From: Acetobacterium sp. | GTDB taxonomy: Bacteria; Bacillota; Clostridia; Eubacteriales; Eubacteriaceae | Reading direction: 5' to 3' | Assembly: GCF_030652775.1 (NCBI RefSeq) | Contig: NZ_JAUSPS010000010.1 | Coordinates: 19,280-83,279, forward strand | Length of the DNA stretch: 64,000 bases | Shown: positions 22,451-50,509 of the stretch, in pieces | How the letters are laid out: each line of letters begins with the position of its first letter | How positions within the stretch are numbered: the first letter of the stretch is position 1 | Notes under the pieces: model-generated | The model's input: the letters and a program-made list of their open reading frames with translations, nothing else | Databases searched by the model: none | Told to the model about the DNA's origin: nothing | Program-made: the position numbers and the translations under genes

Positions 22451-24586
22451 TTACATAATCGGATCCATCGCCAATGCGGGATGGTTTTTGGTTTCCAGGA
22501 ATTCCAATACTGCTTCAGAGTCAGTTGCAATGGTTTCGTCACAAACCATATCGGCAAAATTTTCAATGCCGGTCATTTCAAAGACCGCTTTGTTTAAACG
22601 TTCGGCGACATCGTTTTTCAATTCTTTAGGCATCCAGACGATTCGGGATAAACCACCTTCCGCTGACATGAATTTTTTAGAACCAATCAGGAAGCGGCCA
22701 TGACCCATAAAGCCTGGGGTCTGAACCCCGCCGCCGGTCATCGAAGCCAACTCACCAAAGGTCATTCCGACTGGTGAAGACTCGCTGAATTCACGATTGA
22801 CAATGATGACGCCATTGGCTTCCGGCATAATCCCGCAGATACATTCAAAACAACCACAGGAAGTCATCGGATCTTCCAGAATCGAATAGAGGGTTACTTT
22901 TTCGACGGCTCCCTGGGAAGCGGCATTTACCACCTCATTAACTGAAGCCCAGATCCCCAGCCGTTCATCAACAGCTTCACCTTTGACAATCGGCTGGTTG
23001 GGTCCCAGTGGATCCAGTTCTTTGGTGGCCTTGGCATCTAGCCAGGATACGGCTCCACAAAGACCTAGACGTTCTGGGGTGACAACGCAAACATGACTTG
23101 GCGCAAAGGACTGACATAATAAGCAGGTATAGAATTCATCAACGCTGGCATCGGTTAAGGCACTCATTCGAGCATCACGTTCAGCATAAATCGGTTTAAC
23201 CATTTCTTCGCCCAGTCGTTTGACATCTTCAGGCTTGGTGTAGATGGTAATTTCGCATTTATCAACAACCTTTTCAAAGTCTGATCGCATCTTGGCGTAG
23301 AGCACTTCGCCGATATGTTTTAACCGGAATCCCTTTTCAAAGGCTTCTTTGGTTAACCGAATCCAGGCAATGTTTCGTTGTCCGACATGCATAGCGCCAT
23401 CGATGTAGTTGGTGAAATAGTGGATCCGTCTTTCCAGCACGGTTTCAAAATCTTTCTGCATCGCTTTTCCGCCAACAGTCACCACAATCCCTAGTGGCAA
23501 ACGAACCACGTCGGCTCCGGCAAACATCGAGTCATCGATATCCGGTCCAATCAGGGTAATTTTGTGATCTTCCATTTCGGCCGGATCACCGCTGGTCACA
23601 AGTTCCCAACACTCGGTTTTGTTGCCGCCAAATTCAGCAAACATGGTGTCTTTACGAACCCGTTCACCTTCAAATGCCGATGCCACGGAAACAGGCACAT
23701 CAATTTTGGTAACTTTTATTTTAATTTCCCGAGCCTCTAAGGAGAACTCAACGGTTTTGGTGTGGTCAGCCTGGGTCATTAACGCACCGGGTACTTCCGG
23801 CACCGGGACATCAGCGATAACTGGGAAGCCAAGAGCAATGGCGCCAGCTCCCACGGAGACAATTACTTCGTTTAATTCGCCGAAGGTATTGACAAAGGCG
23901 GGTACCCGATCTTTGGTATAGGTCAGGAATTCTGCCAGTTTGCCCGGTTCGATTCCGCCAAAAATCAGGGCGGCCCGAATCGCAACGGAGACAACATGGA
24001 TCACTGAGGTCACTTCATGACCTAAGGGAATGACCCGATATTCCAGTCCCATTTTCACACCGGCTGCTAACGCTTGCTCGATGATATTACCAACCATAAA
24101 GGTCAACAACCCTTTTTCCTGATAATCTTTAACGATGGCTGCCAATGTGGCGGGATCTGAGGATTCACCCAACAGTACCGCAATTCCGGGAATATCTCCG
24201 GTTACCAGTGGCACGCCCAACGATCGAATAATCGGATCAGCGACAAAACCGATGCCGGCATCGTTAGCGTAAGGGTCGCCATCCAGATAGCGGATCGCTT
24301 CAATAATTTCAGCCCCGACTGCGGTAGCCAGCCCGGCGTTTAAGGCTTCTCCCAAATCTTCTTTGTTGGTAATCAGACTTTTAAGAATCCCCACTGCTGC
24401 CGGCAAGTCGCCCAGAGTTTTAATTTTAACCCCGGTTGCCGCATAAATGATCGGTAAAAAATAGGCCGTATCCGGGTATCCAACCGCATGATCGGCACCA
24501 TACTTTTCAATAGCGTCATTAACAGCGCCTTCTGTTAAACCTGCAACCGCATTCGAACCCGCATAAATTAAATCTGTCAAACTCAT
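22451..24586 (-). CDS. acsB: Acetyl-CoA synthase (CODH/ACS beta subunit, bacterial three-domain form)
   Basis: 711 aa. A-cluster ligands TCLLCQSFAPSHVCVVTPERLGLCGAVSW and PMTSCGCFE intact; N-terminal domain YPDTAYFLP. Confidence 0.97.
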   Translation of the reverse strand: MSLTDLIYAGSNAVAGLTEGAVNDAIEKYGADHAVGYPDTAYFLPIIYAATGVKIKTLGDLPAAVGILKSLITNKEDLGEALNAGLATAVGAEIIEAIRYLDGDPYANDAGIGFVADPIIRSLGVPLVTGDIPGIAVLLGESSDPATLAAIVKDYQEKGLLTFMVGNIIEQALAAGVKMGLEYRVIPLGHEVTSVIHVVSVAIRAALIFGGIEPGKLAEFLTYTKDRVPAFVNTFGELNEVIVSVGAGAIALGFPVIADVPVPEVPGALMTQADHTKTVEFSLEAREIKIKVTKIDVPVSVASAFEGERVRKDTMFAEFGGNKTECWELVTSGDPAEMEDHKITLIGPDIDDSMFAGADVVRLPLGIVVTVGGKAMQKDFETVLERRIHYFTNYIDGAMHVGQRNIAWIRLTKEAFEKGFRLKHIGEVLYAKMRSDFEKVVDKCEITIYTKPEDVKRLGEEMVKPIYAERDARMSALTDASVDEFYTCLLCQSFAPSHVCVVTPERLGLCGAVSWLDAKATKELDPLGPNQPIVKGEAVDERLGIWASVNEVVNAASQGAVEKVTLYSILEDPMTSCGCFECICGIMPEANGVIIVNREFSESSPVGMTFGELASMTGGGVQTPGFMGHGRFLIGSKKFMSAEGGLSRIVWMPKELKNDVAERLNKAVFEMTGIENFADMVCDETIATDSEAVLEFLETKNHPALAMDPIM

Positions 24587-24820: not shown

Positions 24821-26755
24821 TTATGTTATGTTATATTTCTTAATTTTATTGTAGAGTGTTTGCCGCGTGATGCCCAGTTTTTCCGCAGCAGCAGTCTTAT
24901 TGTCGTGGCAGCTTTTTAGAACCTTGACGATCAGATCCTTTTCATTTTCTTTAATTTCACTTTTAGCGATTACTGAATCAAAACCATTTAAGGTTTCTGC
25001 GGTACATAGTTCTTTAACAATCAGATCATTCGTAATAACCCGATCATCAACTAAAAATGTCAGTCTTTTCAGTAAATTTTCTAACTCTCTAATATTACCT
25101 GGCCAATTATAATTCATTAATTCCCGCAGTCCTGCTTCATCAATTCTTTTTAATGCGGTTCCCGTTTCTTTACTGATATGTTCCAGTATTTTATCGACAA
25201 GACCGGGAATTCCCTGACGTCTTTCTCTTAACGGCGGCAAAATAATATTGATGACATTAAGCCGGTAATAGAGATCTTTTCTGAATAAACCCGCCCTGAT
25301 CATCTCTTCCAGATTTTGACTTGTCGCTGCAATGACTCTTGTATCAACTTTCCGGGTTGTGACAGAACCCATTTTTTCGAACTTTTTTTCCTGCAGAAAG
25401 CGGAGTAATTTCGATTGGATTTCGATTGGAATCTCTGCGATTTCATCTAAGAAAACAGTGCCGCCCTGAGCCATTTCCAATCTGCCTACTTTGCCATTCT
25501 TGTTCGCACCAGTAAAGGCTCCGGGTTCATAGCCAAAAAGCTCGGTTTCAAAAAAATTCCTGGGGATCGTGGTACAGTCAATATAGACGAACGGTTTTTG
25601 ACTTCTGGGACTCTCTTGATGAACAATTTCTGCAAACATTGTTTTCCCCGTTCCACTTTCCCCTCGCATTAGAATTGAGGCATCTGTTTTTGATACCTTC
25701 TTGATGTAATTCACCAGTTCAATCATTTCATGGCTGTCGACAATGACGTTTGTGTCGCAAAGATTAACCGCCTGCTGTTCTCTGGCTTTGTTTTTGCCGT
25801 CAATCCGTTCTTCCAGGTCTGAGATTTTGTCAAGCAGCAGTTTAATAAAATCCGACTCCACCGGAATTACCTGTCTTAGCACTGCCTTTGATTCTAAAAT
25901 AGGGCTCTCAAAGATGATATGTTCCTTACCCGAAATCATCTGCTGCCATATCGCCGGTTCCCCGGTTGCCAAAACCTCGGTATATTTTGATTCCCATGCT
26001 AACGAGATGATGCTGGTATTCTTTTCAAATGCCGAGGCTAAGAATTCCTGGTACTTTTTATTGATTCGCACCACCATTCCCCTATTATCAATGACCGCCA
26101 GATAATTGGGGATGCTATCGATGATATTCTGATTGAAATTATCTGCCTCCAAAGCATTTTCCAGAGCATCATTGAGTTTCTTATTATCTTGAGTCGAACG
26201 CTGACTTTGGGATTGGATCTGATTTTTGCTTTTGGCTAACTTTAATGAGTTGATGGTCAGGTAGAGCATATTAATATCGTTTTTGCCACCGTCACCGTCT
26301 TCATTGAAGCTCTTTTTATTCCCAACTGCTTTGGTAACTTCGAATTCGCAATACGCATCTCCCAAGGCATTGCACTTCACTTCCAGCGCATCCATATCCT
26401 GTTTGCTGATGGTACTGACGGCACCGGCTAAAATCCCCGCTTCAAAATAGCATACCGGTTTTCCAACGTTCTCCATATCACTGCAGGTAAAACAGTCATC
26501 CAGACGAAAGACGACTTTCTCGTCCGACATGTTGGTTATGACGATTTGCCCAATTCCCAATTCCATGATTTTTTCTGACAAGCTATTATAGTCTGTTACA
26601 TTTAGGCTGCGCCCGACATTTTTTGCGGTATTATAATATATTTCTTCCTCAACAGCTTTTGAATTCTGACTGGCATTTGCCAAATTCAGGACATTTTTCA
26701 GGTTTTTTTCGACATTATTGTAATTTTTGTAGTTCACAATACCATTATTAAACAT
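24821..26755 (-). CDS. Sigma54-dependent enhancer-binding protein, V4R - PAS-like - AAA+ - Fis HTH
   Basis: V4R (DCFTC...CYFEAGILAG...EVKCNALGDAYCEF), GESGTGKT, GAFTGA, FLDEI, FRKDLYYRLNV, WPGNIREL, AAEKLGITRQTLYNKIKKY. Confidence 0.93.
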   Translation of the reverse strand: MFNNGIVNYKNYNNVEKNLKNVLNLANASQNSKAVEEEIYYNTAKNVGRSLNVTDYNSLSEKIMELGIGQIVITNMSDEKVVFRLDDCFTCSDMENVGKPVCYFEAGILAGAVSTISKQDMDALEVKCNALGDAYCEFEVTKAVGNKKSFNEDGDGGKNDINMLYLTINSLKLAKSKNQIQSQSQRSTQDNKKLNDALENALEADNFNQNIIDSIPNYLAVIDNRGMVVRINKKYQEFLASAFEKNTSIISLAWESKYTEVLATGEPAIWQQMISGKEHIIFESPILESKAVLRQVIPVESDFIKLLLDKISDLEERIDGKNKAREQQAVNLCDTNVIVDSHEMIELVNYIKKVSKTDASILMRGESGTGKTMFAEIVHQESPRSQKPFVYIDCTTIPRNFFETELFGYEPGAFTGANKNGKVGRLEMAQGGTVFLDEIAEIPIEIQSKLLRFLQEKKFEKMGSVTTRKVDTRVIAATSQNLEEMIRAGLFRKDLYYRLNVINIILPPLRERRQGIPGLVDKILEHISKETGTALKRIDEAGLRELMNYNWPGNIRELENLLKRLTFLVDDRVITNDLIVKELCTAETLNGFDSVIAKSEIKENEKDLIVKVLKSCHDNKTAAAEKLGITRQTLYNKIKKYNIT

Positions 26756-29864: not shown

Positions 29865-29933
29865 TTAGTCGATATGAATATCACGAATGATCGTCATATC
29901 GACTAAATGACGCGGGGTCGTTTTATTTGTCAC
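29865..29933. repeat. 13-bp perfect inverted repeat abutting a REP-like element
   Basis: TTAGTCGATATGA (29865-29877) / TCATATCGACTAA (29894-29906), then ATGACGCGGGGTCGTTTTATTTGTCAC (29907-29933), which overlaps the amt-GGDEF stop. Confidence 0.65.
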
Positions 29934-31819
29934 ATTGGTTGCTTCACAATCATGTTTCTGCCCTTTTCTTTTGCGCAATAAAGCAGTGAATCCGCCCGGT
30001 TAATCATTTTATTTAAATCCTCTCCTTCGTATTCGACAACGCCCCCGCTAACCGTAATGGTATAATCCTTGTTAAAATCCCAGATCATCTTTTCAATCTT
30101 TTCTCTGATCATATTTGCAAAGATATACGCTGTTGCCAAATCAGTTTTAGGCATAATGACAAGAAATTCTTCGCCCCCATACCGGCCAAAATAGTCTGTT
30201 TTTCTGATGGTATTGCTGACATTCTTGACGATATCAACCAATACCTGATCACCAGCTAAATGTCCGAATTGATCATTGACTTTTTTGAAAAAATCAATAT
30301 CGAACAATAATATTGACAGTTTTTTCTCATAGTTGATGGCAATGCTGATTTCTTTTTCCAAGGCATCGGTTACATTTTTTCTGTTTAAAATTTGTGTCAA
30401 ACCATCCGTCACCGCCATATGATGCAGCGACTGCAAAGCCTCTTCGGCCAGCTCTTCTTTTTCTTTTAAATCATTGACCATACTATTGAAATAATCTGTC
30501 AATTCACCAATTTCAGTTCCGAATTCGACTTCAATTTTTTCTGCATTTTTAAAGTTTTTATGCTCAATGATATTCCGAACCGAATTCGAAAGTTCAAAAA
30601 TACTGGTACTTGCGCCATGCTCGGCAATATTGAGTCCAATTTCTTCATGACTTGGCGATACCCGCATGGGAAAGAATTTATTAATAATCGTCATTAAAAT
30701 AAATGATACGCCAAAGCTCCAAACAAACGCCGCAGTCGCGCCCAGTATTTGAATCATAATTTGATTGGATCTGGTCATCCCAAATTCTAGTAGAAAATTC
30801 TCCTGAATAAAAATTCCGGTAGCAATTGTTCCCCACACTCCGGCAAATCCGTGTACCGGTATTGCACCAACCACATCATCCAGTTTGAGCTTTTCCAATA
30901 GCAGGGTTCCAAAAAAAACAATTAAACCAGCTACAATCCCGATAACCAACGCCCCAACTGCGCTCACATAATAACAACCCGCGGTTATTCCCACCAATCC
31001 GCCAAGAATACCATTGATGATACTTTCCGGTTCGGGAAGTTGATTTTTACTGAATTTCCAACTGACAAACAGACCGGTAAGCCCGCCAAAAGAAGCAGAT
31101 ATCAAGGTATTGGCAATGATGTCGGCAATATTCGTAGTCGCCGCCAGCGTACTGCCGGCATTAAACCCAAACCAGGCGAAAAACAGAATGAAAACACCAA
31201 AGTATGCAAAAACGAGATTGTGTCCTCTTATTTTGTTTGCTTTGCCATCTTTTTCAAACCTGCCCAGTCTTGGGCCAATAATGATCACACCAGAAAGTCC
31301 AACCCAGGCGCCAATCGAGTGAACAACCGTTGATCCGGCAAAATCAAGAAATCCGAGCTGCTGAAGCCAGCCGGCGTTATCCGCATAGAAATAACCACCC
31401 CAGGCCCAATGACCAAAAATTGGATAGATAAATGATGACGTAATAAATGACATTAATAAATAGGTGCTGAATTTCGCTCTTTCGGCAACCGCCCCAGAAT
31501 CGATGGTTGCCGCTGTTCCGGCAAACACGACTTGAAAAAGAAAAAAAGCAGCTTTCCAATCATCTTGTTCAAAATTCACAAAAAAATCACTGATTCCTAC
31601 AATACCATGAAATGATTCGCCAAACATCAGCCCAAAACCAATAAACCAAAAAGCCGCAACGGATAAAATAAAATCCGACATATTCTTAATCGCAACATTG
31701 ATGGAGTTCTTTGCGCGTGTAAGTCCCGTTTCCAAAGCCATAAAACCTGGCTGCATCAGAAATACAATCATCGCCGATATGACAACCCATAAATAATCTG
31801 AAATATCCTTCATCTGCAT
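29930..31819 (-). CDS. amt: Ammonium transporter fused to a HAMP-like linker and GGDEF diguanylate cyclase
   Basis: Amt motifs QPGFMALETG, DFAGSTVVH, WFGFNAGS, DDVVGAIPVH. Then DGLTQILNR, DIDFFKKVNDQFGH, RKTD I-site and GGEEF. Confidence 0.93.
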   Translation of the reverse strand: MQMKDISDYLWVVISAMIVFLMQPGFMALETGLTRAKNSINVAIKNMSDFILSVAAFWFIGFGLMFGESFHGIVGISDFFVNFEQDDWKAAFFLFQVVFAGTAATIDSGAVAERAKFSTYLLMSFITSSFIYPIFGHWAWGGYFYADNAGWLQQLGFLDFAGSTVVHSIGAWVGLSGVIIIGPRLGRFEKDGKANKIRGHNLVFAYFGVFILFFAWFGFNAGSTLAATTNIADIIANTLISASFGGLTGLFVSWKFSKNQLPEPESIINGILGGLVGITAGCYYVSAVGALVIGIVAGLIVFFGTLLLEKLKLDDVVGAIPVHGFAGVWGTIATGIFIQENFLLEFGMTRSNQIMIQILGATAAFVWSFGVSFILMTIINKFFPMRVSPSHEEIGLNIAEHGASTSIFELSNSVRNIIEHKNFKNAEKIEVEFGTEIGELTDYFNSMVNDLKEKEELAEEALQSLHHMAVTDGLTQILNRKNVTDALEKEISIAINYEKKLSILLFDIDFFKKVNDQFGHLAGDQVLVDIVKNVSNTIRKTDYFGRYGGEEFLVIMPKTDLATAYIFANMIREKIEKMIWDFNKDYTITVSGGVVEYEGEDLNKMINRADSLLYCAKEKGRNMIVKQPM

Positions 31820-40835: not shown

Positions 40836-41234
40836 GTGAAAAAAATGAAGTACAAAGCTCCCGGCAGATGTCCCATCTGTAGTGAAAAGCTATCCATTAC
40901 CAAACTCAACTGTCCCAAGTGTGCCACCACCATTGAAGGTCATTTTGAGCCTTGTGAATTCTGCCGTCTACCAGATGAAGATCTTAACTTTATCAAAATA
41001 TTCATCAAGTGTCGGGGAAATATTAAGGATGTTGAAAAAGAACTGGGCATCTCTTATCCGACAGTACGCGGTAAACTGGATACGGTTATCAGAGGTCTGG
41101 GCTATGAAGTGCCCTCAAAGGAACTGATCAAGGAAAACGAAAATAAAACAGCCGCCCGAAATGAAATCTTGGATCAATTGTCAAACGGTGAAATCACCTC
41201 AAAAGAAGCAACCGAACGCATAAAAAATTTATAA
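40836..41234 (+). CDS. DUF2089-family DNA-binding protein with C-terminal SHOCT-like tail
   Basis: CPIC...CPKC zinc ribbon; FIKCRGNIKDVEKELGISYPTVRGKLD; ILDQLSNGEITSKEA. Confidence 0.88.
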   Translation: MKKMKYKAPGRCPICSEKLSITKLNCPKCATTIEGHFEPCEFCRLPDEDLNFIKIFIKCRGNIKDVEKELGISYPTVRGKLDTVIRGLGYEVPSKELIKENENKTAARNEILDQLSNGEITSKEATERIKNL

Positions 41235-41253
41235 AGAAAAGGGAGATTAGACA

Positions 41254-41691
41254 ATGAACGAACAACAAAAAATATTAGAAATGATCGAAAGCGGGCAAAT
41301 CACAGCTTCCGAAGGTATGGAACTGCTGGAAGCTCTGACTATGACCAATGAAGTGGCAACAATTACGACTGTCGAAACAACTGGCAACCACGGTTACAAA
41401 TTCTTTAAGGTTAAAGTGACCTCGGATAACAATTCCGTCAATGTCAATATCAATATCCCGATCCGTCTGCTGACGACCATTGGTGAAATTGCCGACCGAA
41501 TGACGGCAGTACTTCCCCCGGATGCCAGAAGAGATATGGAGTCGAAGGGGATTGATCTTTCCGGCATCGATTTTGCTAAAATAGTCGAAGAGGTAATCAG
41601 TGGTACCCTGGATGAACCGAATATCGTTGATGTGGAAGCCTGGGATGAAAACAGTCAGACCATGATTAAGGTACGGGTCTATGTCGAATAA
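41254..41691 (+). CDS. SHOCT-like domain protein (YvlB-like N-terminus)
   Basis: EQQKILEMIESGQITASEGMELLEAL, followed by VKVTS...VNINIP. Confidence 0.75.
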   Translation: MNEQQKILEMIESGQITASEGMELLEALTMTNEVATITTVETTGNHGYKFFKVKVTSDNNSVNVNINIPIRLLTTIGEIADRMTAVLPPDARRDMESKGIDLSGIDFAKIVEEVISGTLDEPNIVDVEAWDENSQTMIKVRVYVE

Positions 41692-41995
41692 GGGTTTTCG
41701 CAGCTTATGGATCCGGCTTCAGATTGAGGACAAACAGTTCATAACAATTCCCTTTCCCATCCCCTTATATATTTTCGAAGAATTACTGGACAGTTTTCTG
41801 GATATTCTGATCATCGCATGTTTTTTTACCCCGAAAACACCCGCTCCGAATCCATCTTCCCGGGTCTCAGTCCATTTAGTGAAAGAGCTTGTTGTCGCTG
41901 TGATGATCCTGCTGCGGTCTTTAAACAGCGATGAGCCCTACGATCTTGTCGATGTTACTACTGACAAGGCCAAAGTTTTGATTAAAATCAGATAA
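41681..41995 (+). CDS. Hypothetical protein
   Basis: ORF coupled to neighbours; IPFPIP...PYDLVDV pattern similar to the C-terminal part of the upstream gene. Confidence 0.65.
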   Translation: MSNKGFRSLWIRLQIEDKQFITIPFPIPLYIFEELLDSFLDILIIACFFTPKTPAPNPSSRVSVHLVKELVVAVMILLRSLNSDEPYDLVDVTTDKAKVLIKIR

Positions 41996-42014
41996 ACTGT
42001 TTTGGGAGGTAAAA

Positions 42015-42362
42015 ATGAAAAAACTGTTCATGAAATATCTATCGATCATTGCGACGCTTTACTTACTGTCACTTGTTTTTCACAGCATTCACATCGACAG
42101 CATTTCGGCTCTGCTGATCATGGGACTGGTTTTGTTGGGCGTAAATTTATTATTAAAACCGATTCTGCTACTGATTACCCTACCGCTCAGTCTTCTCACC
42201 CTGGGCTTATTCAGTTTCATTGTGAACGCCTGGATGATTATGATTGCCGACCATTTTGTCACTACTATCAGCATGGGCGGTTTTCTTAATTCACTCATTG
42301 CCGCTTTCATCATTGTTTTATTCAATCAGCTATTCACGGGGATGACTAAGGAATCTTATTAA
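42015..42362 (+). CDS. 4-TM 'phage holin family' protein (YvlD-like)
   Basis: VNLLLKPILLLITLPLSLLTLGLFSFIVNA signature. Confidence 0.88.
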   Translation: MKKLFMKYLSIIATLYLLSLVFHSIHIDSISALLIMGLVLLGVNLLLKPILLLITLPLSLLTLGLFSFIVNAWMIMIADHFVTTISMGGFLNSLIAAFIIVLFNQLFTGMTKESY

Positions 42363-42425
42363 TGATGTGACAAAGAGATGTTTTTGGCAGTAAACCATAT
42401 CAGTAACTACCCGATAAACTTTATA

Positions 42426-42554
42426 TTGACAAAAAATAATTTCTTAGTTATGATATCAAATAAAAGCAGACAATACAAAACTAAACAATTAAAAACAGCA
42501 AGAGTGGTACAAGGAGGTACGCGCAGAAAGTATGCGTATACCTTCATTTTTTTT
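42426..42554 (+). promoter_or_regulatory. SigA promoter plus leader hairpin/U-tract upstream of the uptake operon
   Basis: TTGACA(42426)-17-TATGAT(42449). Hairpin at 42511-42544 followed by T8, about 30 nt before the permease ATG. Confidence 0.6.
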
Positions 42555-42584
42555 ATCATTTCATTTTTTTATCAAAGGAGTTTT

Positions 42585-43643
42585 ATGGAAATCGGCAAGC
42601 GTGAAAAAAGTCAAAACCGTAAAAAAAAGCGGGTGCGAAGAAATCAGATAATAATAGCTGGTATGTTGATCCTATTGATCGTTTTGTTATTAGCCTCCTT
42701 TACTTTGGGAAGATATAACATTGATATAAAAGATTTGATCGTTTATATGGGAAAAAAACTTGGGATTAATCTGGAGCTTGACCAGATTAAAGAACATCTT
42801 ATTTCCAGTGTCAGATTTCCCAGAATAATTGCCGTCATTTTGACGGGTCTGGCACTATCCGTTTCAGGGGCATCTTATCAGGGTATCTTTAAAAACCCCA
42901 TGGTTTCGCCGGATATTTTAGGCGCTTCAGCAGGCGCTGGCTTTGGCGCATCGCTGGGGATTTTATTGTCATTGCCAACCATCATGATTCAATTATTAGC
43001 ATTTGGCTTTGGAATTACCTCGGTGGCGTTAAGCTGTTTGATTGCCGGAATTGTCGGACGGCGTGAAAATGTAACCCTCGTTCTGGTGCTGGCTGGAATG
43101 GTGGTATCATCATTATTCAGTGCATTTATCTCCATTATTAAATACGTCGCCGATCCATATGCTAAATTGCCGGAGATCACATTTTGGCTGATGGGAAGTA
43201 TTTCCGACGCTAAAAACAGTGATTTAATTTTTATAATTGTGCCGGTTGTCATTTGCCTGACGATTATATTTCTGGTTAGATGGGAAATCAACGTTCTCAG
43301 TTTTGGTGATGAAGAGGCCCGCGCTTTAGGGGTTAATGCCGGGCAATTAAGGCTGGTCATTATTATTTGTGCAACCATGCTGACGGCAACCGTAGTAAGT
43401 GTTTCCGGTCAAATCGGTTGGGTTGGACTGATTATTCCACATCTGGCAAGGATGATCGTCGGTCCTGACTACCGGTACTTAATTCCGGCAACAGCAATCC
43501 TGGGAGGGATCTTTCTGTTACTGGTTGACAATATTGCCAGAACGGTTATGCCGGTTGAAATTCCGCTAGGGATACTAACCGCTATCATTGGGGCACCGTT
43601 TTTTGTGTTTTTGATTTTAAGAGGAAGGAAAGGATGGATTTAA
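42585..43643 (+). CDS. FecCD/BtuC-family ABC permease
   Basis: RFPRIIA, QGIFKNPMVSPDILG, GDEEARALG, GWVGLIIPH, DNIART, EIPLG. Start at ATG 42585. Confidence 0.94.
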   Translation: MEIGKREKSQNRKKKRVRRNQIIIAGMLILLIVLLLASFTLGRYNIDIKDLIVYMGKKLGINLELDQIKEHLISSVRFPRIIAVILTGLALSVSGASYQGIFKNPMVSPDILGASAGAGFGASLGILLSLPTIMIQLLAFGFGITSVALSCLIAGIVGRRENVTLVLVLAGMVVSSLFSAFISIIKYVADPYAKLPEITFWLMGSISDAKNSDLIFIIVPVVICLTIIFLVRWEINVLSFGDEEARALGVNAGQLRLVIIICATMLTATVVSVSGQIGWVGLIIPHLARMIVGPDYRYLIPATAILGGIFLLLVDNIARTVMPVEIPLGILTAIIGAPFFVFLILRGRKGWI

Positions 43644-44413
43644 TGCTGGAGCTTAATAACATTTCCTGTGGCTATAACAATATGCCAATCTATCAAGGGA
43701 TTAATTTTAAGGTTCATCCGGGGAGTATTGTCTGTATCATGGGCAGAAACGGAATCGGGAAAACAACTTTGCTAAAAACGATTTTAGGAAGTCTTAATAC
43801 CCTAAACGGTTCAATTATTCTTAATGGCAAAGATATTCTTACCTACAGCAATAAAAAAAGAGCGCAGCAGATTGGATATGTCCCCCAGTCCCATGTTCCG
43901 CCCTTTCCATATTCTGTTAGAGACGTTGTTGTGATGGGGAAAACACCACATTTATCGATATTTTCGGTACCGGGCGATTCTGACTACTCACAGGCCGATG
44001 AAATATTAGAAAAAATTGGCATTAGCTATTTAAAGGAAAAAATATACACCCAAATTAGTGGCGGTGAAAGGCAGCTAGTAATTATTGCGAGAGCTTTGAT
44101 TCAAAATCCTAACATTTTAATTATGGATGAGCCCACTGCAAATCTGGATTATGGCAATCAGATTAAAATTATTAAAACCATTAAAGCCTTGGCAAAAGAA
44201 AAAATATCCGTAATAATGACAACGCATCATCCTGAACAGGCATTTGAGTGTGCCGACTTAGTTGTCGCAATGACTGAAGACAAGGTGATTTCAACCGGAA
44301 CGCCGGTAGAAATATTAACAGCGGAATTGATTGAAGAAATCTATGGCGTAAGCGTTACTGTTCAAACGGTAAATGTCGAGGGAAAGGAAAAAATGATATG
44401 TTTGCCAAAATAA
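43634..44413 (+). CDS. ABC ATP-binding protein (FecE/BtuD-like)
   Basis: GRNGIGKT, ISGGERQL, MDEPTANLD, TTHH. Confidence 0.94.
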   Translation: MDLMLELNNISCGYNNMPIYQGINFKVHPGSIVCIMGRNGIGKTTLLKTILGSLNTLNGSIILNGKDILTYSNKKRAQQIGYVPQSHVPPFPYSVRDVVVMGKTPHLSIFSVPGDSDYSQADEILEKIGISYLKEKIYTQISGGERQLVIIARALIQNPNILIMDEPTANLDYGNQIKIIKTIKALAKEKISVIMTTHHPEQAFECADLVVAMTEDKVISTGTPVEILTAELIEEIYGVSVTVQTVNVEGKEKMICLPK

Positions 44414-45507
44414 AAAGACCGCTAATAACAATAACACTCATATTTATTGTCATTACCTCAGGTGGATGCTCCAATCCTTCGGATTCAAAAAATGAAGCGC
44501 ACAACACGATTATCGATATGGCAGGAAGAACGGTGGAAGTGCCATTAACAATTGATCGTGTTTATTCGGCCGGGCAACCAGGGGTTGTTGCACTCTATAC
44601 CTTATGTCCGGATAAGCTTTTGGGATGGTGTATTGAACCGTCTGATGCGGAGGCTGAATTTATTAATGCAAAGTATCTGAATCATCCGGTACTGGGGCTT
44701 TGTCAGGGAACAAATGCCAATGCAAATACCGAAGAGATTGTTGCCCGAAATCCGGATATTATTATTTTGATGACGGATACGAGTACCGAATACGCGAAAA
44801 CTTCGGCCGACGAAATGCAGGAAACTTTTCAAATTCCGGTTGTCGTGGTTGGTGATGAATTGACGACCATGGATGAGAGTTACCGATTCCTGGGCAAATT
44901 ATTAGGAGTAGCAGCGCGAGCTGAAGAGCTGGCCTCCTATTGCGCCAAGGTAATTGATGAAGCTAAAGACATTTCAAAAACAATTCCAGACAAAGAGAAA
45001 GTCAAGGTCTACTACGCTCAAGGCTCAACCGGACTTCAGACCGCGCCACAGGGATCAGCACACTCACAGGTGATTGAACTGGTTGGCGGAATTAATGTAT
45101 GTCGTCTGGATGCGGTTGATAGCGGTCGTCTGACCATTGATATGGAACAATTGTTTAAATGGAATCCTGATATTATAATCGCCTCATATAGTGATGACCA
45201 TGGCGGAACCAACCTCGGGAACACCGATGTTTTTGACATCATTACCAATGCAAATCCGGAATGGCCTCTTTTAGAAGCAGTAAAGAACGGTGAAATATTC
45301 AAAACCCCCTTCTTACCATATAATTGGCTGGACATGCCACCATCGGCTAACAGAATTGTTGGGGTAGCCTGGCTGGCAGAACTTTTATATCCTGACTACT
45401 ATCATTTTGATATTGTGCCGGCAACAAAAGATTTTTATCAGCTGTTTTATCGGATTGAGTTATCAGATGAACAGATAAACAAATTACTAAATGAGGCAGT
45501 AAAATAA
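44398..45507 (+). CDS. Class III substrate-binding lipoprotein (BtuF/FepB-like)
   Basis: Lipobox TSGGC; DMAGRTV, EEIVARNPDII, EQLFKWNPDII, AVKNGEI. Confidence 0.9.
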   Translation: MFAKIKRPLITITLIFIVITSGGCSNPSDSKNEAHNTIIDMAGRTVEVPLTIDRVYSAGQPGVVALYTLCPDKLLGWCIEPSDAEAEFINAKYLNHPVLGLCQGTNANANTEEIVARNPDIIILMTDTSTEYAKTSADEMQETFQIPVVVVGDELTTMDESYRFLGKLLGVAARAEELASYCAKVIDEAKDISKTIPDKEKVKVYYAQGSTGLQTAPQGSAHSQVIELVGGINVCRLDAVDSGRLTIDMEQLFKWNPDIIIASYSDDHGGTNLGNTDVFDIITNANPEWPLLEAVKNGEIFKTPFLPYNWLDMPPSANRIVGVAWLAELLYPDYYHFDIVPATKDFYQLFYRIELSDEQINKLLNEAVK

Positions 45508-45656: not shown

Positions 45657-46439
45657 ATGAAAAAAGCAACGAAAAAAATGCCGGAAAATGCGAAAAAAAA
45701 TGCAATGCCGGGTTTGATTATGATGGTGTTAATCATGATATCGATAATGTCATCAATGAGCGCACCCGTTTTAGCAACTGACCAAGTGGATACAACCGTG
45801 TATGACTCCGCTTCAACAACCGAAACCTTATCATGGAAAGCCTTTAATGTTTTATTGGGTTACAATGATATGGGAACGACAATGACCGGATCTCCGGCAA
45901 CGGGTATCTATGAATTTAGAGTCGGCGGAACCGCTGATGGCGAATTAAAATATGCCTGGACATTTGACGGAAGTGCTTTCACAACACCCTTTACCAGTGA
46001 AACAAAAGGACCAATAAATCTTACGGTCCAAACGGTGAGCGAACCTGAAAAAGGTCTTGGGATTACGTTTGACCTCTATACCTCGCATAGCGAGGGTAAG
46101 GATAATAGCCTGAACGGCGCTGCAAATTTAAAACTAAAAGTGGCTGAATTTTTTGCTGATGGAACAAAACTTGTGATTACTGATTCGAATGCGTACAGTA
46201 AAGAAGTAACTGTAGTGGATGGTTATATTAGTTTTGAGGTCAACCAGGGCGGTACCTACGAAGCTAAAGAAAATCCCGTTGCCGTCCCAGAAAAAACTGC
46301 TCCAGCAGATAATGAGATCGTTACAGCCAAGTCCACCAATCCGGTGAATATTGGATTGGTGATTCTGCTAATCGTCGTGGTTTTGGCAATTGGTGGAATT
46401 GTTGTTTTCCTGAAAAGAAAAGGCAAGCATGATAACTAA
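45657..46439 (+). CDS. Secreted, C-terminally membrane-anchored surface protein
   Basis: Signal peptide, beta-rich domain, C-terminal TM (IGLVILLIVVVLAIGGIVVFL) plus KRKGK stop-transfer. Confidence 0.75.
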   Translation: MKKATKKMPENAKKNAMPGLIMMVLIMISIMSSMSAPVLATDQVDTTVYDSASTTETLSWKAFNVLLGYNDMGTTMTGSPATGIYEFRVGGTADGELKYAWTFDGSAFTTPFTSETKGPINLTVQTVSEPEKGLGITFDLYTSHSEGKDNSLNGAANLKLKVAEFFADGTKLVITDSNAYSKEVTVVDGYISFEVNQGGTYEAKENPVAVPEKTAPADNEIVTAKSTNPVNIGLVILLIVVVLAIGGIVVFLKRKGKHDN

Positions 46440-46446
46440 TTAATGC

Positions 46447-47862
46447 GTGAAAGGGTCGATAATTATGGTATGCGGTGAAAAGAAAGCAAAAACGGTTTCC
46501 TGTCTTTTTAGAGTATTGTTTACGATAATTATCATACAGCTTGTCAGTTTTACGACTACAAACCTGGTTTTTGCTGAAACAATTGGAGATGATACCATTC
46601 ATGATTCAGGAACGGGAACATGGGAAAACCCTTATGTCGATACCGTTGATGCGACTTCAAAGGTATCATGGAAACACCTGGAAAAAATCGGTGAAGAGCA
46701 AATTCATGAAGTCTATCAAATTGTTGAAAATGGCGTGATGCAGTATAGTTGGTATTTTTCTCCTGAAATTTGTAAAAATCCTTCCATTAGTGGTCCCTAT
46801 TTCCTGGGGATTAACAAATATCTCGTCAGTCAGTCTGATCATTTACCCGGTGGAAGCAGCGATGAGTCGCTTTATTTTTCTTTTGCCCTAAAACGGGATT
46901 TTCCCGGAGCAGTCAAAATTAAACTAAATGTTTCAAACAATTTCTCTGATGGCACTGTTTTGGATTTGAATTACTATGGCGGATATGCGAAAACGGCTGT
47001 TCATGGCGACAGTCCACTGATCTTGCCGGGCGAAATCAATACCTTTTCGGGGGTCGAAGCGGTTGCTTCAGGGCTCCCCGTAATTGATGGCTATGTGGAA
47101 TTCGATGTCCGCCATGGTGGAAATTATTATTTAATACCGGAAAACACAAACAGTGCCAATATCAATTCAAGTGAAGTTGTACTCGGTAAAATCGGCGAAC
47201 TTTTTAGCGGTAAAATTGCTGAAACGATTGCTGATTATTTTGGTAAAACCATTGAAGATACCGTTACCGCCGGGGATTTAAACAGTATTAAAAAATTGTA
47301 TCTAGCAGATATGCAATTAGACAGCTTAGATGAACTTGGCAAATATAACTTGAGCGGGTTGGAGCAATTAACGGCTTCAGGAAATAACCTAAACAAGGTT
47401 CCGCTTTTGAAAGCACCTCAAATAACTTACCTGGATTTGTCCGGCAATAAAATTGATGATATTGCCGGGTTAGGACAGATGCCCACCTTGAAAAACATTT
47501 TATTATCCGATAATCGCATGACAAACATCGGGGATTTAAGTATTTTTGCAAAATTAACGACATTAGATTTAAGCAATAACAAAATTACTTCCTGGGGTGC
47601 GGAAATAAAAAGTGGTACCCTCCGGTACCTAAAGCTTAGTGGGAATCAAATCGAAACGGAAATTGACACATCCGGGCTTACCGCATTAGAAGAACTGGAA
47701 TATGATCGCGATGCTTCGTTAGTTGCGGCGTCTCAATCAGTATCTGAAAAGAAGCAAACGGATGGAGAATTTATGAAAAACGGATCCGTAGTTTTTATTA
47801 TTTTGATAATTATTATCGCAATAGTGACGATTAAAGTATATTTTAAAAGGAGTAGTTTATGA
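46447..47862 (+). CDS. Surface protein with a beta-rich domain, internalin-like leucine-rich repeats and a C-terminal TM anchor
   Basis: LRRs such as LEQLTASGNNL, ITYLDLSGNKI, LKNILLSDNRM, LTTLDLSNNKI, LRYLKLSGNQI. C-terminal TM plus KRSS. Confidence 0.8.
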   Translation: MKGSIIMVCGEKKAKTVSCLFRVLFTIIIIQLVSFTTTNLVFAETIGDDTIHDSGTGTWENPYVDTVDATSKVSWKHLEKIGEEQIHEVYQIVENGVMQYSWYFSPEICKNPSISGPYFLGINKYLVSQSDHLPGGSSDESLYFSFALKRDFPGAVKIKLNVSNNFSDGTVLDLNYYGGYAKTAVHGDSPLILPGEINTFSGVEAVASGLPVIDGYVEFDVRHGGNYYLIPENTNSANINSSEVVLGKIGELFSGKIAETIADYFGKTIEDTVTAGDLNSIKKLYLADMQLDSLDELGKYNLSGLEQLTASGNNLNKVPLLKAPQITYLDLSGNKIDDIAGLGQMPTLKNILLSDNRMTNIGDLSIFAKLTTLDLSNNKITSWGAEIKSGTLRYLKLSGNQIETEIDTSGLTALEELEYDRDASLVAASQSVSEKKQTDGEFMKNGSVVFIILIIIIAIVTIKVYFKRSSL

Positions 47863-48827
47863 AATATTTTGAAAACAATGTATTGGCTCTGATGCCTTGT
47901 GCGGTTAAAGTGCCCATGGAAGCAACGATTGCCAGTTACATCAAAAATAAAAATCTTTCCCTAAAATATGAGATATTATCCAATGCCGTCGTCCAGGCTG
48001 ATTTTTTTGAAGAGCTTAAAACAATTGAGGATATTGATAAACTTCCGGATATCATGATTGCTCCGGGATTCAGCCGCTTTTTCTTTCCGGCATTTGTTGA
48101 ACGATTTATAAAAAAGGGCGCCTTCCAATCATCGCTTGACTTTGAGGTGTCAGAGGCTTATCAGGAATCAGGCGTTATTGACCCCAATGCTTACTACGAT
48201 ATCATCGCTGTCAACCCACTTATTTTTTTAGTTGATCAAACGAATTATCCCGATCTTGAGCCGCCAAAAAAATGGGCTGATCTTCTATCTTCGCAATATC
48301 AGCAGAAAATTGCCTTTAGAGGCCATACCGATGAGGATTTGTGTGAGGGCATCTTATTTGAAATCTATCATACCCATGGTATTGAAGGAATAGAACGGTT
48401 GGCTCGAAATATAAAATCAAGGCTGCATCCTTCACAGATGGTAGCCCTTGCCGGAAGCAAAAAAGAAGAAGCGCCCTTTATCAGCGTAATTCCTTTATCC
48501 TTTGCGAATCTTGTGAAGGAAAGCGACACGGTTCGGGTGATCTGGCCGGAAGACGGTGCTGTAATGAATCCGGTTGTCATGTTGACAAAAAAGGATTGCA
48601 GCCAGGATGCAAAGGACGTTTCAAGATACTTTATTAGTGAAGCGGTTGGCGCTTTATTTAGCGAGGTCGGTTTTTGCTCGCTCCGGCCGGGGCTTGAGGA
48701 AAGAATGCCCCACTTTGGAAAATACAAATGGATCGGTTGGGATTTTCTCCTTCAGACGGATGTAAAAAAACTTCATGATGAACTGAATCAGGTGGTTAAC
48801 ACACACTCACTGGAAAGGGTGAAATAG
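47859..48827 (+). CDS. Substrate-binding-protein-fold protein without a signal peptide
   Basis: PKKWADLL, VIWPEDGAVMNP, YFISEAVGALF fit the AfuA/spermidine-type SBP fold. The N-terminus has no hydrophobic leader. Confidence 0.7.
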   Translation: MKYFENNVLALMPCAVKVPMEATIASYIKNKNLSLKYEILSNAVVQADFFEELKTIEDIDKLPDIMIAPGFSRFFFPAFVERFIKKGAFQSSLDFEVSEAYQESGVIDPNAYYDIIAVNPLIFLVDQTNYPDLEPPKKWADLLSSQYQQKIAFRGHTDEDLCEGILFEIYHTHGIEGIERLARNIKSRLHPSQMVALAGSKKEEAPFISVIPLSFANLVKESDTVRVIWPEDGAVMNPVVMLTKKDCSQDAKDVSRYFISEAVGALFSEVGFCSLRPGLEERMPHFGKYKWIGWDFLLQTDVKKLHDELNQVVNTHSLERVK

Positions 48828-48828
48828 A

Positions 48829-49518
48829 ATGCGTCTCATTACCTTTTCCGGGCCGCCTTCATCGGGAAAAACATCAGTCATTATCAGCACCATCAGGGCT
48901 CTTAAAAATAATGGTGCGGATGTTGCGGTTGTAAAAATGGATTGCCTCACCTCCGACGACAAGGCACTCTATCAGAAAGAAAACATTCCGGTTGGGGTCG
49001 GACTTTCCGGCAATCTTTGTCCAGATCACTTCTTTATCACCAATATTGAAGAGTGTTTTGAGTGGGGAATTAAAAAAGCGGTCGACTATCTTATTACCGA
49101 AAGCGCCGGTCTTTGCAATCGCTGTTCTCCGCACATTTCCGGGGTTATGGCGGTCTGTGTGATTGATAACCTAATGGGTGTCAATACGCCTAAAAAAATT
49201 GGCCCCATGCTTAAAATGGCCGATATCGTAATCATTACAAAAGGGGATATCGTCTCTCAGGCTGAAAGAGAAGTCTTTGCCTTTAAGGTAAGACAAGCCA
49301 ACTCGAAATGTCTGATTCTCAATGTGAACGGGATAACCGGTCAAGGATGCACCGAATTTGCATCAATTTTAGCACAAGCCCAGGAACATGATGCGGTTAC
49401 CGATGAAAAACTGCGATTTTCCATGCCCGCCGCCGTCTGCTCCTATTGCCTGGGTGAGAAAAAAATCGGCAAGGCGTATCAATTAGGCAATATGCGAAAG
49501 GTCGAATTTCATGATTAA
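48829..49518 (+). CDS. HypB/UreG/CobW-type (G3E) metallochaperone GTPase
   Basis: GPPSSGKT, LSGNLCPDH, TESAGLCNRCSP, ITKGD, C-terminal CSYC. Confidence 0.85.
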   Translation: MRLITFSGPPSSGKTSVIISTIRALKNNGADVAVVKMDCLTSDDKALYQKENIPVGVGLSGNLCPDHFFITNIEECFEWGIKKAVDYLITESAGLCNRCSPHISGVMAVCVIDNLMGVNTPKKIGPMLKMADIVIITKGDIVSQAEREVFAFKVRQANSKCLILNVNGITGQGCTEFASILAQAQEHDAVTDEKLRFSMPAAVCSYCLGEKKIGKAYQLGNMRKVEFHD

Positions 49519-50509
49519 CTCAATACCCGACGAAAAGATTGCTATCATTCTCAAAACCTATGCTTATTGTCACGATTTTTTCGACGCCATTGTTATCGAT
49601 TATCCTCCACAAGAAAAGTATCATCTAACCGTCAACGAATATTTTGAGAGCCTCGATAGCTATGAACTCCAAACAAAAGGGGTTGAACAGGCAGATCTTG
49701 TCGACCAGTTTGTGTCGTTTTTGGAGAATATGGAAGCACGTCAAAAAAGCGTTCAGTGGAATATCGAGTCACTTACGATTGTCGGAGGACAGAACAAGCA
49801 TGGCGAACAGGAAAATGTCAGCATCTGTCTCAGACCAGGTGATGTCGTATCGATTGTTGGCCCAACCGGTTCCGGGAAAAGTCGCTTGCTGGGGGATATT
49901 GAATGGCTTGCTCAGGGTGATACCCCAACCAAACGACAGATATTGATAAATGATACCATCCCGCCTCAGTCTTGGCGGTTTTCCATTGAGCACAAACTCG
50001 TTGCCCAGCTTTCGCAGAACATGAATTTCGTCATGGATCTGACGGTGGCGGAATTTATAAAAATGCATGGCGAAAGCCGAATGATTGGTGATATCGAAGA
50101 AAAGATCCGCTTGATTCTGGAAAAGGCTAATGAACTTGCCGGTGAAGAAATATCCCTTGACACCCCTGTAACCGCACTTTCCGGAGGGCAGTCCCGAGCG
50201 CTGATGATTGCCGATACCGCTTTTTTGAGCTCCTCGCCGATTGTCCTGATTGATGAAATCGAAAATGCCGGAATTGATCGGAAAATAGCGATATCCCTAC
50301 TGGTTACGAATGAAAAAATTGTTTTGATCGCAACCCATGATCCGGTTCTGGCGCTCAGTGCCGAAAGGCGAATTGTCATCAAGAATGGCGGGATTGAAAA
50401 AATAATTGCAACCTCCCGGACTGAAAAAGAACTTCTGCATGAACTTGAAGCGTTAAATCAGAAGCTGATGAACTATCGGGAACGCCTAAGAACGGGAGGA
50501 AGCTTCTGA
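49511..50509 (+). CDS. ABC-type ATPase with N-terminal extension
   Basis: GPTGSGKS, LSGGQ, LIDEIENAG, ATHD. Confidence 0.88.
   Translation: MINSIPDEKIAIILKTYAYCHDFFDAIVIDYPPQEKYHLTVNEYFESLDSYELQTKGVEQADLVDQFVSFLENMEARQKSVQWNIESLTIVGGQNKHGEQENVSICLRPGDVVSIVGPTGSGKSRLLGDIEWLAQGDTPTKRQILINDTIPPQSWRFSIEHKLVAQLSQNMNFVMDLTVAEFIKMHGESRMIGDIEEKIRLILEKANELAGEEISLDTPVTALSGGQSRALMIADTAFLSSSPIVLIDEIENAGIDRKIAISLLVTNEKIVLIATHDPVLALSAERRIVIKNGGIEKIIATSRTEKELLHELEALNQKLMNYRERLRTGGSF

Follow-up and report, generated by a model that had tools for sequence, protein, structure and literature searches.

Three adjacent genes in the genome of an Acetobacterium sp. encode a previously undescribed G3E-GTPase system. 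They lie in a 64,000-nucleotide (nt) stretch of contig NZ_JAUSPS010000010.1 (NCBI RefSeq assembly GCF_030652775.1, positions 19,280 to 83,279 of the forward strand), hereafter the window, whose positions we number from its first nucleotide. The trio encodes a 322-amino-acid (aa) protein resembling a solute-binding protein (SBP-like; 47859–48827), a 229-aa GTPase (48829–49518), and a 332-aa soluble ATP-binding cassette (ABC) ATPase (49511–50509), all on the forward strand, and these are the last three genes of an eight-gene operon headed by a FecCD-type importer. Searches for SBP_bac_6/CobW, G3E/ABC ATPase, DUF1858, PDB codes, and the HcpR regulon found no publication describing the trio, in agreement with a preliminary description of this DNA that had called its function uncharacterised. 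Our favoured reading, held tentatively and with somewhat less than even confidence, is that the module is a cytoplasmic metal hand-over machine for nitrogenase-type cofactor supply, whatever its cargo; that this same machine specifically carries iron is more doubtful.

The trio genes are translationally coupled: the ATG of the SBP-like gene overlaps the stop codon of the upstream leucine-rich repeat (LRR) gene (ATGA, 47859–47862), a single nucleotide separates the SBP-like and GTPase genes, and the GTPase and ABC ATPase genes overlap by 8 nt. All three products are predicted to be cytoplasmic and soluble. In a Kyte–Doolittle scan, no signal-peptide- or membrane-helix-like hydrophobic segment was found in any trio protein (maximum 19-mer score ≤1.45, versus 3.03 for the FecCD permease), and the N-terminus of the SBP-like protein is neither hydrophobic nor basic. 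In most SBP-like homologues, the “LPCP” strand found at this N-terminus as MPC follows a cytoplasmic DUF1858 domain, 80–100 residues into the chain, which excludes a signal peptide. Both the tight coupling and the missing export signal noted in the preliminary description were borne out, the latter by the hydropathy scan and by the homologues.

Chance does not explain the association of the three genes: of 86 loci from more than ten phyla, about 76 have the SBP-like gene first, then the GTPase gene and the ABC ATPase gene. A scan of one genome per species detected relatives of the trio, again in more than ten phyla, in at least 589 species, one of them a Methanosarcina. The GTPase alone has 6358 database relatives, and the best 120 of these are all 64–69% identical or better while covering many phyla (among them Bacillota, Fusobacteriota, Spirochaetota, Bacteroidota, Chlorobiota, Ignavibacteriota, Deferribacterota, Thermodesulfobacteriota, Pseudomonadota, and Synergistota). 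Many of the sampled genomes are metagenome-assembled genomes (MAGs). Closer to the window, the SBP-like protein is 87% identical to its counterpart in A. paludosum and 83% identical to the A. woodii orthologue.

Judged from its sequence, the GTPase is a true G3E-type (SIMIBI class) protein that forms a new branch of this family, whose members HypB, UreG, MeaB, and CobW/ZNG1 are textbook metal-insertion motors. Pfam assigned it a cobW/HypB/UreG nucleotide-binding domain (PF02492, E = 1e-11), and it carries the motifs GPPSSGKT, CPDH, ESAGLCNRCSPH, TKGD, and CSYC. Walker A (GPPSSGKT), ESAG (the ExxG motif), and TKGD are invariant in 16 GTPases and align with the corresponding motifs of UreG. Across the phyla represented by the same 16 sequences, seven cysteines and two histidines are invariant, in the arrangement C39, C64-P-D-H67, C96-N-R-C99-x-P-H102, C110, and C204-S-Y-C207, with His102 present in at least 90% of sequences. 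The CPDH, CNRC, and CSYC metal motifs picked out in the preliminary description are therefore real and conserved. In a profile alignment, C64-P65 falls on the Ni-binding Cys66-Pro67-His68 of Helicobacter pylori UreG, and the switch-II Cys is positioned as in HypB; the protein has two extra invariant CxxC pairs. The structural model of the GTPase (predicted local distance difference test score, pLDDT, of 77) returned UreG and HypB as its six best Foldseek matches, followed by MeaB (top chains 4hi0_E, 4lps, and 2hf8; identity 18–21%). The earlier label “HypB-like” thus holds for the fold and the G3E motifs, but the protein misses the curated cut-offs of both HypB (TIGR00073, 46.6 versus 121.2 bits) and UreG (TIGR00101, 30.2 versus 204.2 bits). 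Nor is it a COG0523/CobW protein, as the sequence has no GCxCC motif, Pfam detected no CobW_C domain, and its length is only 229 aa. Since the genome encodes a canonical HypB elsewhere (ENVGNLVCP, CH motif; contig C51:46043–46738) as well as a COG0523-like protein, GTPases of the trio type are additional paralogues.

The SBP-like protein belongs to the SBP_bac_6 family (PF13343, E = 7e-62), and its AlphaFold2 model (pLDDT 93.9) adopts the two-lobe SBP fold. The best Foldseek matches of this model were the ferric-binding proteins FbpA, FutA/IdiA, and SfuA (E ~1e-13, template modelling score ~0.65, identity 12–16%), with PotD and PhnS-like proteins close behind, and a profile built from 48 homologues also found ferric-binding proteins in the PDB by sequence (Campylobacter jejuni FbpA and FutA1). 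Among the 48 aligned homologues, Cys14 (LPCP, here MPC), His190 (HPxQM), Gly174, and Pro238 are invariant across a core of 38, which confirms that the N-terminal MPC motif singled out in the preliminary description is a conserved feature. Cys14 and His190 are the sole invariant polar residues; no invariant Tyr or Glu was seen when the alignment was inspected for FbpA-type Fe(III) ligands. In the model, Cys14 follows strand 1 and His190 stands at the start of a C-lobe helix, and the pair would be placed where FbpA has metal ligands, namely His9 and Tyr195/196, which we take from the topology to be the equivalent positions. Most homologues (median length 400 aa) carry an N-terminal DUF1858 domain, and the copy in the window is a short form without it. 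Separately, a subtype found in Synergistota and Anaerovoracaceae (L028, L046, L069, and L085) has an SBP-like protein of about 300 aa in which Cys14 is missing (motif HT[SP][IV]N); here a methyltransferase gene always comes next and the set lies within a FecCD importer. One genome with this subtype (G026) was included in the nitrogenase survey below, and is the only carrier outside clade A without nif. The SBP-like protein of Methanosarcina sp. T3 (L074) also lacks the invariant Cys, and in this locus two HMGL-like/homocitrate-synthase-like genes directly follow the cluster of importer and trio (L074:11761–13750).

The third protein (ABC_tran, PF00005, E = 2.6e-16) is, as far as its motifs can tell, a catalytically complete ABC ATPase whose membrane partner is absent: GPTGSGKS, the Q-loop AQLSQ, LSGGQ, IVLIDE, and the H-loop ATHD are all present. 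It is distant from every solved ABC protein, with PhnK among its sequence matches, and bears an N-terminal extension of about 95 aa that looks DUF1858-like by eye only. Its description as an ATPase without a permease of its own stood, both in the window, where the FecCD permease upstream comes with a separate ATPase, and across the related loci, about 60 of 86 of which have no permease within 10 kb.

Next, we evaluated the distribution of the family by clade, using a maximum-likelihood tree of 81 GTPases. A group of 36 sequences, clade A, combines long DUF1858-containing SBP-like forms with stand-alone loci and with zinc-ribbon and YgbA neighbours, whereas the remaining clades have a short SBP-like protein or none and occur in FecCD, TonB, Mod, or methyltransferase contexts. 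The window GTPase groups outside clade A, with copies from Heliorestis and from a MAG locus (L036), as does the GTPase of a second trio-type operon of this genome on contig C17, which groups with the second copy of A. paludosum.

The window's GTPase clades are nearly confined to nitrogenase-bearing genomes. We compared 36 carrier genomes, 23 non-A and 13 clade A, with Fisher tests uncorrected for kinship; one of them (L043) is absent from the tree, its GTPase open reading frame (ORF) having been missed, and was put in the non-A group by its short SBP-like form. As PF00148 also covers nitrogenase-like paralogues, at least four strong clustered hits were required to call nif. On this basis, nifDKEN-type clusters were present in 22 of the 23 non-A carriers compared with 4 of the 13 clade A carriers (p = 7e-5), and either MoaC or nifDKEN in 23 of 23 compared with 7 of 13 (p = 9e-4). 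Among the non-A carriers are Bacillaceae, Aeromonadaceae, Bacteroidales, and Treponema, groups that rarely have nif, and within Acetobacterium both the module and nif were found in three genomes and neither in one. Of the 22 nif-positive non-A carriers, 18 lack NifQ, this genome among them, and NifQ occurs together with the trio in four proteobacterial genomes.

Clade A very probably belongs to a nitrosative-stress response. The operator GTAAC-N4-GTTAC has been predicted for HcpR2 at hcp (Rodionov et al. 2005, PMC1274295). Perfect copies of this operator number 11 in 1.46 Mb of loci, and 10 of these lie 7–102 bp upstream of an SBP-like gene that starts a trio, in five phyla. In the complete genomes of Fusobacterium nucleatum SB042 and F. 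watanabei, perfect sites number exactly two per genome, one before hcp and one before the trio; Labilibaculum and Dethiosulfatibacter likewise have HcpR2 sites at both, and a Sphaerochaetaceae chromosome has the same variant, GTTGCAAAAGCAAC, at hcp and trio alike. More broadly, a perfect CRP/FNR-type 5-4-5 palindrome is found upstream in 19 of 35 clade A loci. In a class sample of 300 genomes, a Prismane gene (PF03063, which covers Hcp and CODH alike) was present in all 18 module carriers compared with 126 of 282 non-carriers (p = 1e-6, uncorrected for kinship), and two of the carriers have hcp no more than 3 kb from the trio. No HcpR-type box was found at either trio copy of this genome (window or C17). 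Its hcp gene (contig C97:3493–5461) is preceded at about 270 bp by the palindrome GTTGCATTTGCAAC, the same variant as in the Sphaerochaetaceae; a gene beside hcp on this contig has an N-terminus that looks flavodiiron-like by eye.

Within the window, the operon begins with a promoter-like site (TTGACA-17-TATGAT, 42426–42454, forward strand) that agrees with 11 of 12 consensus positions, and between this site and position 42585 the leader contains a hairpin followed by a T-run (42516–42555, forward strand; fold z = −3.0). Both features are kept in A. paludosum, where the same eight genes occur. The leader RNA matched no Rfam family at E values up to 10, and the hairpin may be a terminator-like attenuator or a novel riboswitch. 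The first gene, for the FecCD-type (type II ABC importer) permease (42378–43643, forward strand; PF01032, E = 1.5e-87), was called too long by 69 codons (42378–42584), an extension in which the promoter-like site lies; its true start is likely the ATG at 42585, because the A. paludosum orthologue is 352 aa and a ribosome-binding site precedes this codon. Then follow, on the same strand, the importer's own ABC ATPase (43634–44413; PF00005, 1.1e-33), for which the best NCBIfam matches are ATPases of F420-0, corrinoid, and heme importers, and a Peripla_BP_2 lipoprotein (44398–45507; PF01497, 2.3e-20) with an N-terminal hydrophobic signal ending in Cys. The nearest solved chains to this lipoprotein, 4pag (2.8e-46) and 4ovk, have ligands that are unknown; MolA (HI_1472) matches its C-terminal half only (1.5e-8), and 4ino/4ls3 match weakly. 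Two predicted surface proteins complete the upstream part of the operon: a 260-aa protein (45657–46439, forward strand) with a signal peptide, a C-terminal membrane anchor, and a single domain of about 170 aa without a Pfam match, and an LRR protein (46447–47862, forward strand; LRR_4/LRR_8) with a signal peptide, an N-terminal domain of about 170 aa, and a C-terminal anchor.

The LRR protein is 39% identical to that of the L036 locus, where the importer and an LRR surface protein again accompany the trio. An unnamed extracellular domain of about 170 aa is common to these loci, occurring once in the 260-aa protein, once at the N-terminus of the window LRR protein (46447–47000), and, in L036 (14853–18049), twice in a 504-aa protein and once in the LRR protein, with identities of 27–35%. 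It always lies beside a FecCD importer and the trio and, by analogy with the NEAT domains for heme, may serve in ligand capture.

The second copy (contig C17:100849–105549; L087:5794–12715, minus strand) has a GTPase 58% and an ABC ATPase 49% identical to those of the window. Its operon reads FecCD, ABC ATPase, Peripla_BP_2, GTPase, ABC ATPase, DUF364/DUF4213, methyltransferase, and NTPase_1, and contains no SBP_bac_6 gene. One DUF364 member was recently shown to cyclise a derivative of S-adenosylmethionine (SAM). In two cases, hydF adjoins trio-type genes: upstream of the C17 operon, with a terminator in between, and in Alkalispirochaeta.

To survey the genes around the trio across the 86 loci, ORFs were called, if crudely, and clustered. 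Within about six genes, FecCD/Peripla_BP_2 importers were the most frequent neighbours (18–22 loci, that is, Peripla_BP_2 in 22 and FecCD in 18 of 86), and genes in the same operon were counted in 15 and 12 of 79 loci, respectively. An 80-aa Cys-rich zinc-ribbon protein, weakly HypA-like, is encoded downstream of the trio in 15 loci. SAM methyltransferases were found in 11 loci, Mod-type ABC genes in 10–11, ArsR-type regulators in 8, TonB receptors in 7, YgbA_NO, Crp/Fnr regulators, and TP_methylase in 6 each, and TunR-like regulators in 4, with the Mod-type and TunR-like genes all in non-A clades.

Three further features of the window stand apart from the operon. Directly upstream of it (40836–42362) are genes for a DUF2089 zinc-ribbon/helix-turn-helix protein, an SHOCT-like protein, and small membrane proteins, with no link of this cluster to the trio seen in other loci. 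On the minus strand, a stand-alone AcsB-like acetyl-CoA synthase gene and a gene for a V4R-domain sigma-54 activator occupy 22451–24586 and 24821–26755, and a 629-aa ORF (29930–31819) encodes an ammonium transporter (Amt) and a GGDEF diguanylate cyclase domain in one polypeptide, a combination that could link ammonium sensing to c-di-GMP.

In the hand-over mechanism that we propose, the importer would bring in a metal or metal chelate, and the FbpA-fold protein would hold this cargo on Cys14 and His190. A dimer of the ABC ATPase could then act as an ATP-driven clamp that opens the holder, in the manner of nucleotide-binding domains on binding-protein/permease complexes or of SufC in SufBCD, and its N-terminal extension could dock the ATPase to either the holder or the GTPase. 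A GTPase dimer would take the metal on interfacial CPxH and switch-II Cys sites, from which GTP hydrolysis would free it to a client, most likely the assembly line of nitrogenase's complex metal clusters. The preliminary description had similarly proposed an intracellular unloading or metal-insertion machine for whatever the upstream system imports. This is plausible. Trio and importer share an operon in the window and in A. paludosum, but an importer is not obligatory, given that the A. woodii trio and about 60 of the 86 loci stand alone.

As to what is handed over, iron or a small Fe-S fragment is the cargo that we put first, if with less than even confidence; molybdenum or tungsten (Mo/W) comes behind it as a possibility, and nickel, cobalt, or another cargo is unlikely. 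Several observations point to iron: the FbpA/FutA fold, the profile matches to ferric-binding proteins, the Fur-like boxes that precede the operon in C. aceticum, and the contexts with FecCD, TonB, and surface receptors, which suit bulky chelates. In addition, clade A keeps all Cys and His residues of GTPase and holder in genomes without Mo use and is tied to the hcp operator.

A number of points weigh against this interpretation. The role in metal hand-over is itself deduced from genes, models, and context, and the putative placement of Cys14 and His190 at FbpA's ligand positions is deduced from topology; moreover, a Cys/His site would resemble neither the Tyr-rich Fe(III) sites of FbpA nor the hydrogen-bond cages of ModA. 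The importer is not adjacent to the trio in A. woodii DSM 1030, whose orthologous trio (83% identical; CP002987, at about 3.798–3.801 Mb) stands by itself, and no HcpR-type, FNR-type, Fur, NikR, or Zur box and no known riboswitch was found upstream of the window operon. In the class sample, 19 of 24 nif-positive genomes do not have the module, which is therefore accessory at most and not required for nitrogenase. For iron in particular, a general iron function alone would not explain the restriction to diazotrophs, and the Mod-type transporters, the TunR-like regulators, a molybdenum cofactor (Moco) riboswitch in one locus, and the DUF364 gene of the paralogous operon point instead to Mo/W.

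These last observations fit a related explanation, which we regard as possible but rather unlikely, namely that the machine is the same and its cargo is Mo/W, brought in by a MolBC-A-like or metallophore-dependent importer and fed by the trio into the synthesis of iron-molybdenum cofactor (FeMo-cofactor) or Moco in the role of NifQ. All 23 non-A carriers use Mo, through MoaC or nif, and most of the nif-positive ones have no NifQ, while individual loci add NifB and modABC beside the trio (Ignavibacteria), the homocitrate-synthase-like genes of the Methanosarcina locus, and, in L042 (Geobacter), a Moco riboswitch on the same strand and 3.7 kb upstream. Furthermore, Methanococcus maripaludis has a DUF364 family member in a modABC operon cofit with nifH, and the importer's receptor weakly matches MolA. 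Conversely, a riboswitch was found near the trio in only 1 of 40 carrier genomes (best 30 of 58 riboswitch matches placed), and of the three Moco riboswitches in this genome none is at either trio copy, so that a Moco riboswitch at the trio was set aside as an argument; the same applies to that of a missing molybdate transporter, which fails as the genome has a canonical ModAB and a TunR-like regulator elsewhere. A free oxyanion would need no surface or TonB receptors, known molybdate-binding proteins do not use thiolate or imidazole ligands, and the Fur-like boxes of C. aceticum speak for iron. Finally, clade A retains the same Cys and His residues without MoaC or nif, for instance in complete Fusobacterium genomes. 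As 13 of 36 carriers lack MoaC, two complete Fusobacterium genomes among them, and six clade A genomes are devoid of both MoaC and nif, Mo/W was ruled out as the client of the whole family. Overall, the Mo/W reading fits the non-A clades and an Hcp/nitric oxide (NO) reading fits clade A, and neither fits the family as a whole.

Nickel, or cobalt, insertion into carbon monoxide dehydrogenase/acetyl-CoA synthase (CODH/ACS), hydrogenase, or corrinoids, supplied by a Ni/Co-chelate importer, is a much less probable explanation, even though the GTPase is nearest to the Ni-GTPases UreG and HypB and carries a CPxH motif. Some Peripla_BP_2 proteins bind Ni-(His)2, consistent with the weak match of the receptor to 4ino/4ls3, the small Cys-rich protein after the trio has a weakly HypA-like zinc ribbon, and the genome has three CODH-like genes besides the ACS gene in the window. 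However, this AcsB-like gene is 23 kb from the trio, on the opposite strand and among unrelated genes, and a canonical HypB and a COG0523 protein are already encoded elsewhere, so that the Ni client ACS/CODH suggested in the preliminary description found no support. The statistical associations are with nif, one of the gene groups for which it had proposed a co-occurrence check, and with hcp, and not with Ni enzymes. A role in B12 or cobalt metabolism was likewise ruled out, as 14 of 36 carrier genomes lack CbiD and the Rfam scan found no cobalamin or NiCo riboswitch. Since MoaC and CbiD are each missing from many carriers, a client common to the whole family cannot be Moco or B12. We consider it similarly improbable that the trio is not a chaperone at all and is instead a cytoplasmic sensor or brake of the importer (trans-inhibition), or a handler of heme or another tetrapyrrole delivered by the FecCD system. 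Heme, B12, or siderophores are the typical cargo of FecCD/Peripla_BP_2 systems with LRR surface proteins and TonB receptors, TP_methylase and SAM methyltransferase genes recur near the trio, and the Cys/His pair could provide axial heme ligands; yet the importer is absent from most loci, in its invariant metal motifs the GTPase agrees with metal-inserting G3E proteins, and the cobalamin riboswitch and CbiD data argue against a corrinoid here as well.

Returning to metal hand-over, a broader version would accommodate both halves of the family. In this version, which we consider unlikely as a whole, the GTPase–ABC ATPase pair would drive a fifth, hitherto unrecognised G3E system that uses exchangeable adaptors to service complex Fe-S-based clusters. 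In clade A, a DUF1858–FbpA-fold adaptor under HcpR control would handle NO-damaged or hybrid-type clusters, and the importer-linked clades, including that of the window, would use the short FbpA-fold protein or DUF364 as adaptor. There, the GTPase would provide nitrogenase cofactor assembly with an Fe-S or Mo-Fe-S fragment, and the module would fill the role of Mo/Fe donor that is missing in NifQ-less anaerobic diazotrophs.

If true, a G3E branch that is about 65% identical over more than ten phyla, always accompanied by a soluble ABC ATPase and usually by a partner with a binding-protein fold, would represent a new metallochaperone design. Two testable handles are available: clade A lies in the HcpR regulon with hcp, and the window's clades are nearly confined to nitrogen fixers, most of them without NifQ. 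To our knowledge, both the routing of Mo and Fe into FeMo-cofactor in anaerobic diazotrophs and the repair of NO-damaged metal centres in strict anaerobes are open questions, and both become testable in the genetically tractable Acetobacterium woodii through its stand-alone orthologue.

Comparison with known systems places the trio near several of them. Its GTPase shares the fold, P-loop, ExxG, [NT]KxD, Cys-Pro-(x)-His, and switch-II Cys with UreG (with UreE, UreF, and UreH) and HypB (with HypA), which insert Ni into urease and [NiFe]-hydrogenase, but it has the two extra CxxC pairs, and an SBP-fold protein and an ABC ATPase replace HypA or UreE/F/H as its partners. The class D periplasmic binding proteins FbpA, FutA, and IdiA are the best structural match of the SBP-like protein, which differs from FbpA in being cytoplasmic and free of a signal peptide and in having a Cys and a His as its invariant polar residues, with FbpA's Tyr/His/Glu iron ligands apparently not conserved. 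Like SufC of SufBCD and PhnK of carbon–phosphorus lyase, the ABC ATPase is a soluble protein with a full set of motifs and would work with soluble partners in cofactor chemistry; unlike SufC, it has no SufB/D-like partner, carries an N-terminal extension, and is always paired with a G3E GTPase. The window importer resembles the type II molybdate/tungstate importer MolBC-A (HI1470–1472) in being of the FecCD type, although its receptor better matches structural-genomics proteins with unknown ligands than MolA. With the Mo donors for FeMo-cofactor NifQ and MosAB, the latter loaded in a nucleotide-dependent manner, the trio has in common a tie to diazotrophy and Cys-rich putative metal sites, without any sequence relationship. 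Lastly, clade A recalls YtfE/RIC and the HcpR/NsrR regulons in joining DUF1858, presumably a relative of the ScdA_N domain of YtfE, to a metal-binding domain and in having an HcpR2 operator in common with hcp, whereas the window copy has neither DUF1858, nor an HcpR operator, nor the hemerythrin domain of YtfE.

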